DNA of 23,364 nt from Candidatus Falkowbacteria bacterium (GCA_018703365.1 JABJLN010000028.1:1-23364), one strand, 5' to 3'; counted from the stretch's first letter, positions 1,466 to 7,312 are shown. Notes: generated by a model from the letters alone, not told the origin. Program-made: numbers and translations.

Positions 1466-1514
1466 AATAAAAATGAACGTTAACAAGCAGAAATGCTTTA
1501 TATAGGAGGAGGTT

Positions 1515-2285
1515 ATGGTCTGGACAAGTGCAGATGAAAGCCGAGCACGCAGAGAGGGGTTCAGTGTTGAGCAAGAAAGAAATCGCCAACGGTATATAGA
1601 TCACATTAAGGCGAATAATGCTCTACAAGAGAAAGAAAAAGAAAGAAAAAAAAGAGAAAAAGAAAAAGATGATGATAAGATGAAAGTCCAGTTAGTATTG
1701 ATGTTCTTTGTTGCTCCAGTTGTGATTATTTTTATGATTGTCCTTTTAATCATTCAAATATCTGGCAACGGTCACATCCTCACCGGTGATTCCAAAATTG
1801 CTTCTGAGTATAAGCAAAAGAGAAAGGAAGTAGTAGAACTGCAAGAAAAATTGTCCGAAAAAATAACTAAACTGGGAGTTGCTGAAACAGAATTCAAAGC
1901 AACAATCGCTAGCAATGTTGGGACAATTCAGAGTAACATTAGACGTGGGCAAATCAGGAGCTTCAATGATGCAGTAAGGAATCAAGAAAGCAACACCAAA
2001 CTCAAGATAATTGCCAAAGCACAAGCTTATCTCGAAATCGTGACTGCTGAGAAAAGAGCAGTTGCCAGAGCGGGTGTTGAGCTTCAAGGAATACGGGCTA
2101 ATCTTGACCTTGATCTAACAATGCTAAAAGCGACAGATCAAGAAGAAATGGACGATTTGATTAAAAAGCTTGATAATGTCATCACAAAAATCAAGCCTGT
2201 AGCAGAGGAATACGTAATCAATGATTACAACAGAGGTTCCTCAGATCTCAAAAGCACTTGGAATAAATATTTTATTCAGAAGTAG
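1515..2285 (+). CDS. Membrane-anchored protein with a charged N-terminus, one TM helix, a coiled coil and the conserved C-terminal module. Paralog 1 of the family.
   Basis: Strong SD aggaggaggttATG. Hydrophobic segment LVLMFFVAPVVIIFMIVLLII. The C-terminal ~95 aa (KAQAYLEIV...LDLDLTMLKA...LDNVITKIKPVAEEYVIND) align with the C-termini of the 2400 and 3064 ORFs and with an internal segment of the 4996 ORF. Confidence 0.7.
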   Translation: MVWTSADESRARREGFSVEQERNRQRYIDHIKANNALQEKEKERKKREKEKDDDKMKVQLVLMFFVAPVVIIFMIVLLIIQISGNGHILTGDSKIASEYKQKRKEVVELQEKLSEKITKLGVAETEFKATIASNVGTIQSNIRRGQIRSFNDAVRNQESNTKLKIIAKAQAYLEIVTAEKRAVARAGVELQGIRANLDLDLTMLKATDQEEMDDLIKKLDNVITKIKPVAEEYVINDYNRGSSDLKSTWNKYFIQK

Positions 2286-2290
2286 ACGTG

Positions 2291-2318
2291 GACTCGACAA
2301 TCTTATTGTCGAGTTTTT
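2291..2318 (+). terminator. Rho-independent terminator.
   Basis: ctcgacaat-ctt-attgtcgag is a 9-bp perfect stem, followed by ttttt directly after the stop at 2285. Confidence 0.6.
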
Positions 2319-2332
2319 AAATTCAGAAAACA

Positions 2333-2361
2333 TTGACAAATAACTAGAAATAAGGGAAAAT
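2333..2361 (+). promoter_or_regulatory. Promoter for the 2400 gene (TTGACA, 17 bp, gaaaat). It belongs to a conserved ~55-bp promoter/leader block repeated upstream of the 3064 gene.
   Basis: cattgacaaataactagaaataagggaaaataacctaattgaactttaacaacaa (2330-2384) matches 2992-3046 at about 48/55 positions. Confidence 0.45.
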
Positions 2362-2399
2362 AACCTAATTGAACTTTAACAACAAAACAAGGGGGAAAC

Positions 2400-4950: not shown

Positions 4951-4995
4951 TACAATGATTATGAACTTTTACAACAAAATGACAAGGAGGCCCAA

Positions 4996-7215
4996 ATGTC
5001 CAGATGGCTAAAGACAATTATTACTGTTATTATTATCATTTTTGCTTGTTCTTGTAACAAAGACAAAAAGGCCAAGAAAAATAAGTCAACTCGTCCTGAA
5101 GTCGCTGAAAAAAACTCCCCTAACTCCAATACTGAACCAGCTCCCCTCTCACAAGAAAAAGAAGCTCCACCAAAGTCAAAAAAAGAAATTTCCGAAGAAA
5201 AGCTTGAACATGTAAAGCATCTTCGCAGAAAACTCGAAAGAAAAGAAAGAACCTTGGCTGGCGCACTTATTACATACAAAGACAAAATTTCTATTTTTGT
5301 TCAAGAAATCAAACAAGAACGTAACCGTAGAAACTTGGTTGAATACAATCAGGCAATTTCAAGTAATTCAATCAAGCATAATCTCGAGGCAATTCAAAAA
5401 GCTGAGGCCTACTGGGGAATTACTAATAGGGAAAAAGTAAAAACAAAACTGGCAATTGTCGACGCAGAAGGAACTGAAAAACTACTTGATCTAGACATCA
5501 CCATGTTTAGCACCATGCCTGAAGATGAAATCGACAAACTACTTGATGAACTTGACCTTGTAATTAATAGAATCCAACCGACAGCCAGAGATCTTGTTAT
5601 CACAGACAAGGAAACTGTGCTTACTCCTCTTGATGAGATTTACGAAAAACATATTCGTAAAGAGGAACGTGAGCGAGAAAAAAAGGAAATTGAGCGTAAA
5701 AAAAAAGCTGAAGCTGACCGGTTAGAACGAGAGCGTCAGGTAAAACTAGCAAAAGAAAAAGCGTTAGCAGATACCCAGGCTCGTGCAGCCCTTAATGCTG
5801 AAGCTCGTCGCCAAGCGTTAATTGCTAGGAAACAAGCCGATGAAGAGGCTGCTAGTCAAGAGAGGACTGCCAGACTACAAGCAATCGCCGAGGCTACACG
5901 CCAAGCAAAAATTGCCAGACAGCAAATAACAGCCGAAGAAAACCGCATAGCTGATGAAGTAGTAAAACAAATTGAGTATAAGAAACGCGAAGCTGAAAAT
6001 CGTGCCCGAGAAAAAGCTGCTGAACTTGCTAGTAAGCAAAAAACAGCAGCAGCGATTGCTAACATCAAAATTATCAAACCCACTATCTGGACTTCTATTG
6101 CATATTACAGACCTGGGGGTGATGGTGCAGGTTACATCCGTTGGTCAAATGATAGCAAAGCAGTGGCTATCACCACCTCATCAAAAATGACTATTAAGGG
6201 TGTTCCTCAAAGCACAACTTATGAGCTTGAATCTAATTACGATAACAGCGACTATATAACCGACATGATCTGGTCTCAAAGCAAAACCAAAATTGCAATC
6301 TATTATTCACATTCTTGTGCACTGGAAAGAGGAAACGCCAAGATTGCAATTTACTCGTTAACAAATGATAAAGAGCTCTGGAGGGTGGAAGTCGAATGCT
6401 CCCAAGCCGCTAGTTTCCTTGGTTGGTTTGGTGATTATATTGTCCTTAAAGCATCCGCTGGGTACAGTAGAAATTTTCACATTTACATTATCAATACGAA
6501 AACCAAGAAAACTCAATCATTCACAGCTGACGCGATAACCCCAGTAAACAACTCCTCTGTCTTTGCTGCAAGCTCAAAAAGAATAATCCAAGTCAGTCTT
6601 TCTGACAGAACAATTCTAAAAGAGTTTAAGTTTTGTCGAGATGATGACGAGTCTCTTTATTATTCTTTTTGCCCAGGAGAGATTGACATTCATAAACTCG
6701 CCTACACGAGCGGGCATCTAATTTCATCAGAGTCGCCACAAAACGGAGAAAGTAGCTTCTCCATTTGGGACACAACTTCTGGAAATAAACTCCACTGGTT
6801 TAAAGGTGACGAACCAAGAGATCTTTGGTGGCTAAAAGACGGCAAAACAGCAGTTATTGCTTTGTCGTCTGGCACAATTTTTACAGTAAATGCGAAAAGT
6901 GGATCAATTTACGAGAAAAAGCTCGTAGATGGTGCGATTGGCTTTTATGGCTATAATGTAAACACTTGGTCCACTAAAAAACCTCATCTTGTTATCAATA
7001 AAAATTCTCCTCAGCACGAAACAGCTCTTAATGAAAAAGCAGGTTCGTACAATACTCTCTTTGTCATGGATATTAGGGACCAACAAACAAAGGCCGTCTT
7101 GGTTATGGAGTCAGATATCTCAGATTCTGTCAGACTTTCATGGAGCCCAAACGGCAAGTACCTCGCAATTGGAGACAAGGGACTCCTTCATGTTTTCAAT
7201 GTAAGCAATATTTGA
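4996..7215 (+). CDS. Large lipoprotein-like surface protein with a signal peptide, a Pro/Glu-rich linker, the conserved module in an N-proximal position, a ~140-aa E/R/K/A-rich helical stalk and a C-terminal WD40-like beta-propeller. Paralog 4.
   Basis: N-terminus MSRWLKTIITVIIIIFACSCNKDKK. Module IQKAEAYWGIT...LDLDITMFSTMPEDEIDKLLDELDLVINRIQPTARDLVITDKETVLTPLDEIYEKH. Stalk EEREREKKEIERKKKAEADRLERERQVKLAKEKALADTQARAALNAEARRQALIARKQADEEAASQERTARLQAIAEATRQAKIARQQ. Propeller-like repeats (IWSQSKTKIAIYYS, LSWSPNGKYLAIGDKGLLHVFNV). Confidence 0.75.
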   Translation: MSRWLKTIITVIIIIFACSCNKDKKAKKNKSTRPEVAEKNSPNSNTEPAPLSQEKEAPPKSKKEISEEKLEHVKHLRRKLERKERTLAGALITYKDKISIFVQEIKQERNRRNLVEYNQAISSNSIKHNLEAIQKAEAYWGITNREKVKTKLAIVDAEGTEKLLDLDITMFSTMPEDEIDKLLDELDLVINRIQPTARDLVITDKETVLTPLDEIYEKHIRKEEREREKKEIERKKKAEADRLERERQVKLAKEKALADTQARAALNAEARRQALIARKQADEEAASQERTARLQAIAEATRQAKIARQQITAEENRIADEVVKQIEYKKREAENRAREKAAELASKQKTAAAIANIKIIKPTIWTSIAYYRPGGDGAGYIRWSNDSKAVAITTSSKMTIKGVPQSTTYELESNYDNSDYITDMIWSQSKTKIAIYYSHSCALERGNAKIAIYSLTNDKELWRVEVECSQAASFLGWFGDYIVLKASAGYSRNFHIYIINTKTKKTQSFTADAITPVNNSSVFAASSKRIIQVSLSDRTILKEFKFCRDDDESLYYSFCPGEIDIHKLAYTSGHLISSESPQNGESSFSIWDTTSGNKLHWFKGDEPRDLWWLKDGKTAVIALSSGTIFTVNAKSGSIYEKKLVDGAIGFYGYNVNTWSTKKPHLVINKNSPQHETALNEKAGSYNTLFVMDIRDQQTKAVLVMESDISDSVRLSWSPNGKYLAIGDKGLLHVFNVSNI

Positions 7216-7216
7216 C

Positions 7217-7246
7217 AATAAACCCACCTTCGACAAGGTGGGTTTT
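7217..7246 (+). terminator. Rho-independent terminator.
   Basis: cccacctt-cgac-aaggtggg then ttttt. Confidence 0.6.
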
Positions 7247-7249
7247 TAC

Positions 7250-7276
7250 TTGACAAAACCATTAAAATGTATAAAA
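7250..7276 (+). promoter_or_regulatory. Promoter for the 7313 gene (TTGACA with TATAAA).
   Basis: cttgacaaaaccattaaaatgtataaaact. Leader motif gatctttaacag. SD gaaggaggtcgtgATG. Confidence 0.35.
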
Positions 7277-7312
7277 CTAGTATGAAAGGTTGATCTTTAA
7301 CAGAAGGAGGTC

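Follow-up and report, generated by a model that had tools for sequence, protein, structure and literature searches.

A conserved boxA-like element in the leaders of a lipoprotein gene cluster and a vault-protein homologue gene of a Candidatus Falkowbacteria bacterium

The present analysis concerns a short leader element in a stretch of DNA that makes up a whole 23,364-bp contig (hereafter, the window) from a metagenome-assembled genome of Candidatus Falkowbacteria, with a guanine-plus-cytosine (GC) content of 37%. The element lies near the predicted 5' ends of six transcripts, namely those of five successive plus-strand genes (g1 to g5) and of a minus-strand gene for a homologue of the vault protein MVP. 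Comparative data settle that the element is real and conserved in related genomes. Our favored reading, held with modest rather than strong confidence, is that it is a boxA-like site at which Nus factors are recruited to messenger RNA (mRNA) leaders, and not a DNA operator. The boxA sequence is the loading site for NusB and NusE (ribosomal protein S10) and functions in the Nus-dependent antitermination of ribosomal RNA (rRNA) operons (PMC5725501, PMC6614797). The sequence, strand and location of the element all support a putative place in the boxA class. The six copies in the window are as follows.

1475..1487, plus strand: boxA-like copy 1 (g1), GAACGTTAACAAG, 38 nt from the start of the -35 box and 16 nt before the Shine-Dalgarno (SD) sequence
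2371..2383, plus strand: boxA-like copy 2 (g2), GAACTTTAACAAC, 38 nt from the start of the -35 box; identical to the window consensus
3031..3043, plus strand: boxA-like copy 3 (g3), GGACTTTGACAAC, 38 nt from the start of the -35 box
4963..4975, plus strand: boxA-like copy 4 (g4), GAACTTTTACAAC, 40 nt from the start of the -35 box
7292..7304, plus strand: boxA-like copy 5 (g5), GATCTTTAACAGA, 42 nt from the start of the -35 box; adjoins the SD
21662..21674, minus strand: boxA-like copy 6 (MVP), GAACTTTGAAAAT, 34 nt from the -35 box and about 85 nt upstream of the start codon

All six copies had been named in an earlier reading of the window from its sequence alone (the sequence-only reading) and are present where it placed them, with the g4 copy starting at 4963 where it gave 4962. 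Its range of 38 to 42 nt from the -35 box also holds for the plus-strand genes (38, 38, 38, 40 and 42 nt), the MVP value being 34 nt. Written as RNA, the element reads 5'-GAACUUUAACAAC-3', with GAACUUUGAAAAU as a further RNA form. Copy 2, GAACTTTAACAAC, is identical to the E. coli rrn boxA GCTCTTTAACAA at 10 of 12 positions, and the MVP copy GAACTTTGAAAAT has A and not C at position 10.

Within the window alone, only the copies of g1 to g4 stand above chance. A search allowing two mismatches to GAACTTTAACAAC gave 5 matches versus 1.4 expected, and a search allowing three gave 18 versus 14-15 expected, which is chance level. The g5 and MVP copies, with three mismatches each, are individually not significant because about 15 such matches are expected per window. 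Comparative data were needed for this reason. When a matrix built from other genomes only was applied to the 46,700 window positions, g2 ranked 1st, g4 3rd, g3 6th, g1 7th, g5 15th and MVP 17th.

Two other matches in the window may be recorded here. The fifth copy within two mismatches, GAACTTTGAAAAC (2940-2952, plus strand), falls within the final codons of g2, with the terminator 10 nt further on; its score of 12 bits is near chance (about one per window), and g2 is absent from the nearest relative. The sequence GTTCATTGACAAT (22465-22477, plus strand) is antisense within an HD-domain gene and scores 16 bits without promoter context, among about six chance matches.

Related loci were found by exact-protein look-ups, a family profile search and pattern scans, which gave syntenic loci from eight further organisms (L005, L008, L012, L013/L015, L014/L016, L018/L022, L020, L021 and L025). 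GC contents in the related organisms range from 32 to 47%, and identity between their family proteins and those of the window is 38-69%. A genome-contig search with the alignment of the four paralogs g1 to g4 returned no related loci, and a search with a 10-sequence alignment returned 4 loci each in the genome and metagenome collections. A protein homolog search with the family profile found only 4-5 near-identical proteins; an exhaustive search of representatives showed a large family. Exact-sequence look-ups with the HD-domain open reading frame (ORF; GTG start) and the MVP ORF gave no match, and the HD-domain ORF taken from its ATG (21778-22785) matched only a 1.7-kb contig.

In every related locus the element follows a TTGAC[ATG]-N17 promoter, both on family genes and on the unrelated genes that follow in the cluster. 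Across 22 non-redundant promoters from 9 genomes it is a 12-base element, G-N-N-C-N-T-T-N-A-C-A-A, with eight positions conserved in 20-22 of 22: G1, C4, T6, T7 and A11 in all 22, A9 and C10 in 21, and A12 in 20. Positions 2, 3, 5, 8 and 13, the spacer between the -10 box and the motif, and the leader between the motif and the SD carry no information in these promoters. This conservation is found despite the 30-69% identity of the encoded proteins. In 132 kb of non-redundant related sequence we counted 31 matches to the strict pattern G..C.TT.ACAA, versus 6.3 +/- 2.5 in shuffled sequence. Of these 31, 25 are sense-strand matches that lie 33-43 nt (one at 65 nt) downstream of a TTGAC[ATG] -35 box, and the other six equal the chance expectation. 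The sequence-only reading had allowed that the motif might be equally frequent at random positions, and these counts and placements speak otherwise. Its proposal of a conserved leader element at a set position is supported: the 22 aligned promoters and the spacing from the -35 box place such an element within the first 20 or so bases predicted to be transcribed.

Individual orthologs also retain the element. The g1 ortholog in L005 has GAACGTTAATAAG, and the g5 orthologs have GTTCGTTAACATA (L008) and GCACTTTAACAAT (L025). The MVP ortholog in L019, whose protein is 83% identical, has GATCTTTGAAAAC, likewise 34 nt from the -35 box. The two changes from GAACTTTGAAAAT to GATCTTTGAAAAC are both at free motif positions, and the leader further downstream is more diverged. 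Thus, the weak g5 and MVP copies are rescued by their orthologous loci.

The element is not a general promoter feature, because about 45 other upstream regions in the loci compared lack it, their best sense-strand scores being below about 9 bits. Among them are those of the genes for glycolysis and hydrogenase, of dinB, of the lexA operon, and of helicase and mur genes. More than one gene family carries it, MVP and nadE being the exceptions outside the lipoprotein cluster. The nadE gene is in another Falkowbacteria genome (L016), where TTGACG-N17-TACAAT is followed by GAACCTTAACAAA, 37 nt from the -35 box, with 14.6 bits. The distribution given by the sequence-only reading stands, with the element common to four paralogous lipoprotein or membrane-anchored genes and the unrelated g5, and present in variant form at MVP; most other promoters lack it. 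Its further idea of a small regulon is right in that the cluster, g5 and MVP share the element, but not as a closed gene set, since nadE has it too. A dependence on Nus factors common to these genes is a better fit than a small regulon with a dedicated DNA-binding regulator.

The L016 contig carries the same tandem-promoter module of about 100 bp, inverted, at both contig ends (100-272, plus strand, and 11767-11940, minus strand). One copy drives a Nudix-domain gene (379 amino acids (aa), possibly NadM-Nudix) and the other drives nadE. The module consists of CTTGACAAA-N17-TAAAAT, then TTGACG-N17-TACAAT, with the palindrome AGTGTGTACAATACACT, and may be a NAD-regulon operator. The boxA-like element is intact only in the nadE copy.

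The position of the element is narrowly set with respect to the promoter. In 30 of the 31 listed leader copies it begins 34-42 nt from the -35 box, from which, by the usual -35 rule, we infer transcription starts that put it at about +3 to +16. The distance from the predicted -10 box is 5-13 nt, with one at 36 nt. The gap between motif and SD is 0-16 nt in 26 of 30 cases and 0-9 nt in most cluster genes. It is 31, 41, 56 and 71 nt in nadE, the gene for a 644-aa protein in L013 and two MVP genes, and in these the element stays promoter-proximal. In the L025 ortholog of g5 the element is 65 nt from the nearest clear -35 box and 9 nt from the SD. Every one of the 25 strict and 31 listed leader copies has the sense orientation and follows the predicted -10 box, and no promoter in the 132 kb of related sequence has an inverted copy, or one upstream of or overlapping its -35 or -10 box. 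The aligned promoters show neither dyad nor direct-repeat symmetry in the element. Folds predicted around the motif are inconsistent and leave it mostly unpaired (mean 0.68), with no consistent secondary structure. No Rfam match reached the gathering score in the window or in 15 related loci. A structured cis-regulatory leader RNA (riboswitch, attenuator or Rfam leader) was thus rejected, there being neither a consistent fold nor an Rfam family. The element behaves as an RNA signal might, being in the sense orientation only, downstream of the -10 box, promoter-proximal even where the leader is long (MVP, nadE, the 644-aa gene of L013) and in no need of structure.

The likeness to boxA is found at each of the conserved positions. 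All eight are those of the E. coli rrn boxA. On the Falkowbacteria matrix the leader boxA of E. coli rrn, GCTCTTTAACAAT, scores 16.0 bits (16-17 bits for E. coli rrn boxA overall), in the middle of the range of the training sites, and a random 13-mer would reach 16.0 bits with P of about 7e-6. In a scan of the E. coli rrnG operon (6.2 kb, both strands, 12,400 positions) the leader boxA ranked 1st and the 16S-23S spacer boxA GCTCTTTAAAAAT ranked 3rd. The sequence TGCTCTTTAACAA is present in a median of seven copies per E. coli genome, and the rrnG copy starts 141 nt upstream of the 16S rRNA gene. We take the rrn boxA of Firmicutes and Mollicutes to be GUUCUUUGAAAAC. A conserved spacer primer, GTTCTTTGAAAACTGAAT (PMC3019172), is the only support we have for that form.

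The comparison extends to published consensus sequences. The rrn boxA consensus is UGCUCUUUA (PMC6614797), and the working consensus for gamma-proteobacteria is GYTCTTTAANA, in which the changes C4T and T6C abolish Nus-factor recruitment (PMC5725501). Both critical positions, C4 and T6 in that numbering, are invariant in the Falkowbacteria-type copies. Two copies, GTTCTTTAACAAA in L008 and GTTCTTTAACAAT in L025, fit this gamma-proteobacterial consensus exactly. Most copies differ from it at positions 2-3, as does the boxA of the cyanobacterial 16S-23S internal transcribed spacer (ITS), GAACCTTGAAAA (bioRxiv 10.1101/2021.01.08.426015). This cyanobacterial sequence shows both the GAAC variant at positions 1-4 and the MVP copy's GAAAA 3' half, and GAACTTTGAAAAT is identical to GAACCTTGAAAA at 11 of 12 positions. 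In addition, transversions at G2, C5 and U6 inactivate the lambda boxA, and U8 lies in a pocket of NusB-NusE as seen in the NusB-NusE-boxA structure (PMC3177189). Positions G1, C4 and T7 of the element correspond to G2, C5 and U8 of that study and are conserved in 22 of 22 promoters, as is the adjacent T6.

Several points weigh against a boxA function. First, position 5, which corresponds to U6 of the structural study, is variable (T in 11, A in 4, G in 4 and C in 3 of 22); this is the main mismatch, and a U6G change impairs the lambda boxA (PMC3177189). Secondly, no described lineage varies nearly as much at positions 2-3. Third, the 3' ACAA is the best conserved part, yet only the first 8 nt are contacted in the NusB-NusE crystal structure. 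Fourth, five or six copies in 23 kb are unusual when compared to the 0-7 mRNA boxA candidates per gamma-proteobacterial genome. Fifth, the tight -35 spacing also fits a site that acts at the level of DNA. Sixth, the only terminators visible are intrinsic ones, which Nus complexes of the rrn type read through poorly. Lastly, an Rfam scan of the window and the Falkowbacteria-type loci found no rRNA gene, and hence no rrn boxA of the lineage, and none of nusB, nusE, nusA, nusG or rho is in the window or its flanks, the part of the genome covered.

If the element is a boxA, the following mechanism may be proposed. The 13-mer would be transcribed as approximately nucleotides +3 to +16 of each mRNA and, on leaving RNA polymerase, would be bound as single-stranded RNA by the NusB-NusE(S10) heterodimer, by analogy with the boxA of rrn, suhB and CRISPR arrays. 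This binding would nucleate an elongation complex modified by Nus factors. At known boxA sites NusB-NusE, together with NusA and NusG (and SuhB in E. coli), form such a complex on the nascent RNA, and on rRNA and CRISPR-array transcripts it confers resistance to Rho (PMC6614797, PMC7665894). The polymerase transcribing g1 to g5 and MVP (genes of 0.5-2.9 kb) could thus be converted early to a termination-resistant (anti-Rho), processive form. In suhB, the boxA is 6 nt from the SD, and the complex blocks ribosome binding, which leads to Rho termination (PMC5725501). Copies that are 0-9 nt from the SD might, additionally or alternatively, limit access of the 30S subunit as in E. coli suhB, which would tie the expression of the surface proteins to free NusB and S10. 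Since closeness to the promoter is the invariant feature of all copies, early Nus loading and Rho-resistant transcription are the most likely common effect; the copies 0-9 nt from the SD could plausibly be subject to a suhB-like limit on translation.

A DNA operator, bound as duplex at +3..+16 by a sequence-specific regulator that would block RNA polymerase or modulate its activity, is the leading alternative, although we think it unlikely. In its favor is the tight spacing from the -35 box. Conserved positions alternate with free ones, as is typical of protein contacts, only a subset of promoters carries the element, and positions 1-4 alternate between GAAC and its reverse complement, GTTC. 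However, the element lacks the dyad or direct-repeat symmetry of an operator and is never inverted or placed upstream of or over the -35 and -10 boxes. A Pfam scan of the neighboring genes found no DNA-binding gene conserved in or next to the cluster, and the L025 copy, 65 nt from the -35 box, is still close to the SD. Coincidence would also have to account for the full match to boxA, at the P value given above. The sequence-only reading had offered either an operator or a signal in the initially transcribed region. Its fixed position has been upheld, and its operator is better read as an RNA signal in light of the missing symmetry, the sense-only orientation, the place downstream of the -10 box and the boxA positions.

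A translational enhancer or standby site in an A/U/C-rich, G-poor leader, or a target of some other RNA-binding factor or small RNA, would also act on RNA. We take the T7 gene 10 'epsilon' sequence UUAACUUUA to be similar to a leader of the enhancer type. The short gap to the SD in 26 of 30 leaders, the mostly unpaired state in predicted folds and the sense orientation would all suit such a site. Even so it is quite improbable, as the four leaders with 31-71 nt to the SD keep the element by the promoter, an invariant G and C would not be expected if composition were the driving feature, and the glycolytic, hydrogenase and lexA-operon genes have strong SDs without the element.

Slightly less probable again is that the element has no function and hitch-hikes on a promoter-leader cassette that was duplicated with the paralogs and homogenized by gene conversion. 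The g2 and g3 promoters and terminators are indeed near-identical, and neighboring promoters are alike within each genome (L014, L012, L020 and L025). Between genomes, however, the spacers and leaders have fully diverged while the eight motif positions are fixed, a profile that suggests purifying selection; the element is also on non-homologous genes (g5, nadE, MVP and several small genes), and the paralogs are only about 30% identical in protein. Least probable of all is a promoter-intrinsic element, either an initially transcribed sequence or a second -35-like hexamer TT[GAT]ACA acting in promoter escape or sigma-dependent pausing: its TTNACA core does resemble a -35 hexamer, about 43 nt after the true one, and its position relative to the promoter is conserved, but the motif leaves free (A 9, G 9, T 4) the G that is invariant in the TTGACA of true -35 boxes, G..C.TT.ACAA offers neither the -10-like TAnnnT needed for a sigma-dependent pause nor an A2/T6 pair, no usable -10 box for a second promoter lies downstream, and the -10-to-motif distance varies from 5 to 13 nt.

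The genes g1 to g5 are flanked by a divergent hypA-pgk unit on one side and a convergent NiFe-hydrogenase operon on the other. By sequence, each is a separate transcription unit with a TTGACA -35 box, a 17-nt spacer, a (T/G/A)AnnnT -10 box, a short G-poor leader, a strong SD, and a hairpin and T-tract terminator that adjoins the next -35 box. The promoters, genes and terminators are as follows.

1437..1465, plus strand: g1 promoter, -35 TTGACA at 1437-1442, 17-nt spacer, -10 TATATT at 1460-1465
1515..2285, plus strand: g1, 256 aa, membrane-anchored, with the helical family domain of about 160 aa
2333..2361, plus strand: g2 promoter, TTGACA-N17-GAAAAT
2400..2948, plus strand: g2, 182 aa, lipoprotein-like member of the g1-g4 family
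2993..3021, plus strand: g3 promoter, TTGACA-N17-GAAAAT, near-identical to the g2 promoter
3064..4884, plus strand: g3, 606-aa lipoprotein with a WD40 beta-propeller and a C-terminal family domain
4923..4951, plus strand: g4 promoter, TTGACA-N17-TAAGAT; TAAGAT is also present in the L008 ortholog
4996..7215, plus strand: g4, 739-aa lipoprotein with an N-terminal family domain, a charged linker and a beta-propeller-like C-terminus
7250..7278, plus strand: g5 promoter, TTGACA-N17-AAAACT
7316..8164, plus strand: g5, 282-aa membrane protein unrelated to g1-g4; ATG 7316 is the start in other assemblies
21680..21708, minus strand: MVP promoter, TTGACA at 21708-21703, N17, TAAATT at 21685-21680
18677..21577, minus strand: MVP homologue, 966 aa from ATG 21577, SD GAGGAGG
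2291..2318 (g1), 2962-2990 (g2), 4892-4921 (g3), 7220-7247 (g4) and 8177-8206 (g5), plus strand: intrinsic terminators, with the next -35 box directly after

The proteins of g1 to g4 have in common an all-helical domain of about 160 aa, with about 30% identity between paralogs. As read from the sequences, the N-termini of g2 to g4 are signal peptides of the lipoprotein type and that of g1 is a membrane anchor; g3 and g4 carry added WD40-type propellers. The family domain (e.g., 2469-2945) has no Pfam model. A profile search of 1.84 billion representatives placed it in 297 clusters at 50% identity, a large and uncharacterized family whose members often have an N-terminal lipoprotein signal and a C-terminal beta-propeller. 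Structure prediction gave a confident all-helical hairpin or bundle (predicted local distance difference test score, pLDDT, 88.5). Comparison of this model with the PDB found no significant relative and was uninformative for the motif. In the public-assembly collection, 69 blocks index the g2 protein. The g2 and g3 promoters are near-identical over about 45 bp (2333-2370 and 2993-3030), and the terminators after these genes are identical in stem and loop (2962-2990 and 4892-4921). The g2 and g3 proteins, in contrast, are only about 39% identical in the common domain, which points to a cassette duplication or gene conversion of the regulatory ends.

The MVP homologue (ORF 18677-21592, minus strand) contains Vault_3 and MVP_shoulder domains and has 1,780 bacterial or metagenomic relatives at E<=1e-20. 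Its start is likely the second ATG (21577), after GAGGAGG, as in the NCBI call of 966 aa. The GC content of the gene is 48% versus 32-40% in the rest of the contig, which suggests that it was horizontally acquired.

The lexA-operon promoter (17848-17900, minus strand) precedes the genes at 17397-17795 and 16728-17330 (lexA) and reads TTGACG-N16-TATAAT. It has GTTCGGTTTCTGTTCG between its -35 and -10 boxes and a perfect inverted copy, CGAACAGAAACCGAAC, about 17 nt downstream, an arrangement conserved in a related genome (L019, about 13700-13776). GTTC-N7-GTTC is presumably a LexA box of the alphaproteobacterial type. LexA autoregulation is thus likely in this bacterium of the Candidate Phyla Radiation (CPR). 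A LexA box was rejected as an identity for the leader motif, which has no second half-site, unlike the GTTC-N7-GTTC of the lexA-operon promoter. Rex, PhoP-box and the extracytoplasmic function (ECF) sigma -35 sequence (GAACTT), checked by eye, did not fit in spacing or in conserved positions.

Other features of the window were also recorded. Two genes for '23S rRNA intervening sequence proteins' (bAvd-like four-helix bundles) are on the minus strand, one (11336-11704) inside the NiFe-hydrogenase operon and the other (17397-17795) ahead of lexA. A gene for a pyridoxal phosphate (PLP)-dependent enzyme (9499-10521) is also inside the hydrogenase operon. Between this operon and a dinB-like gene is an ORF of 28 aa, MKCDKCKCAPCKCKSKCTSCGCKTCKCK (14093-14179, minus strand), with 10 Cys and 9 Lys and a metallothionein-like look. 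A non-coding gap of 500 nt (15673-16169) is associated with three direct repeats of about 43 nt at 15665-15959 (TCATA.AAATAATA.GGCTAAACAA.GCTAGA...), 60-86% identical and spaced 123-129 nt apart; no ORF or Rfam match was found in the repeat region.

Control by boxA was long held to be confined to rRNA and lambdoid phages, and since 2017 it has been extended to suhB, a few mRNAs and CRISPR arrays, almost all of them in Proteobacteria. We found no description in the literature of the present element in CPR bacteria. A survey of promoter architecture that included one CPR species described sigma-70 elements of the canonical kind and, for the initially transcribed region, no more than trends in composition (PMC12641261). 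As a tentative proposal, which we hold less probable than the boxA reading itself, a CPR bacterium with very few transcription factors may use an rRNA antitermination signal as a general expression tag on each unit of the lipoprotein cluster, on a horizontally acquired MVP gene and on nadE in a relative, with output coupled to NusB/S10 and so to ribosome synthesis; or else the likeness to boxA may hide a new lineage-specific RNA- or DNA-binding regulator. If the leaders are boxA sites, Nus-factor regulation would be extended to the Patescibacteria, a lineage whose gene regulation has hardly been explored. How surface proteins are coordinated in reduced genomes could then be approached through a 12-nt RNA and two universal proteins, and Nus-dependent genes could be sought in CPR genomes with a simple pattern.

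Among known systems, the E. coli rrn leader and spacer boxA (UGCUCUUUAACAA and UGCUCUUUAAAAA) are closest in sequence, with 10 of 12 bases of the window consensus and all eight conserved positions. They too are promoter-proximal signals on the sense strand, single-stranded RNA in rrn, and the Falkowbacteria matrix finds both. Unlike them, the Falkowbacteria element precedes protein-coding genes and not rRNA, is free at positions 2, 3 and 5, starts at about +3..+7 where the rrn boxA is at about +32 from rrn P2, and has no boxB hairpin or boxC. Operators such as lacO1 and the LexA box are likewise placed just downstream of the -10 box, as is the GTTC-N7-GTTC of the window's own lexA-operon promoter. 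These are symmetric or repeated and act on DNA, whereas the present element is asymmetric and never in the opposite orientation. The cyanobacterial ITS boxA GAACCTTGAAAA likewise has the GAAC form (positions 1-4) and shares the 3' half TTGAAAA with the MVP copy, but is in an rRNA spacer and in a different phylum. The boxA of CRISPR arrays is also outside rRNA and protects long transcripts from Rho in several phyla (Stringer et al. 2020, PMC7665894); those transcripts are non-coding, whereas the ones considered here are translated, with strong SDs. The boxA of the suhB 5' untranslated region, with rrn boxA the nearest known case, is, like most of the present copies, in an mRNA leader near the SD (6 nt in suhB, 0-9 nt here) (PMC5725501). 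The mRNA boxA sites of gamma-proteobacteria number 0-7 per genome and mostly precede translation-related genes (Baniulyte et al. 2017, PMC5725501), whereas here the element is on five consecutive transcription units of a lipoprotein cluster and on MVP, in a CPR bacterium.

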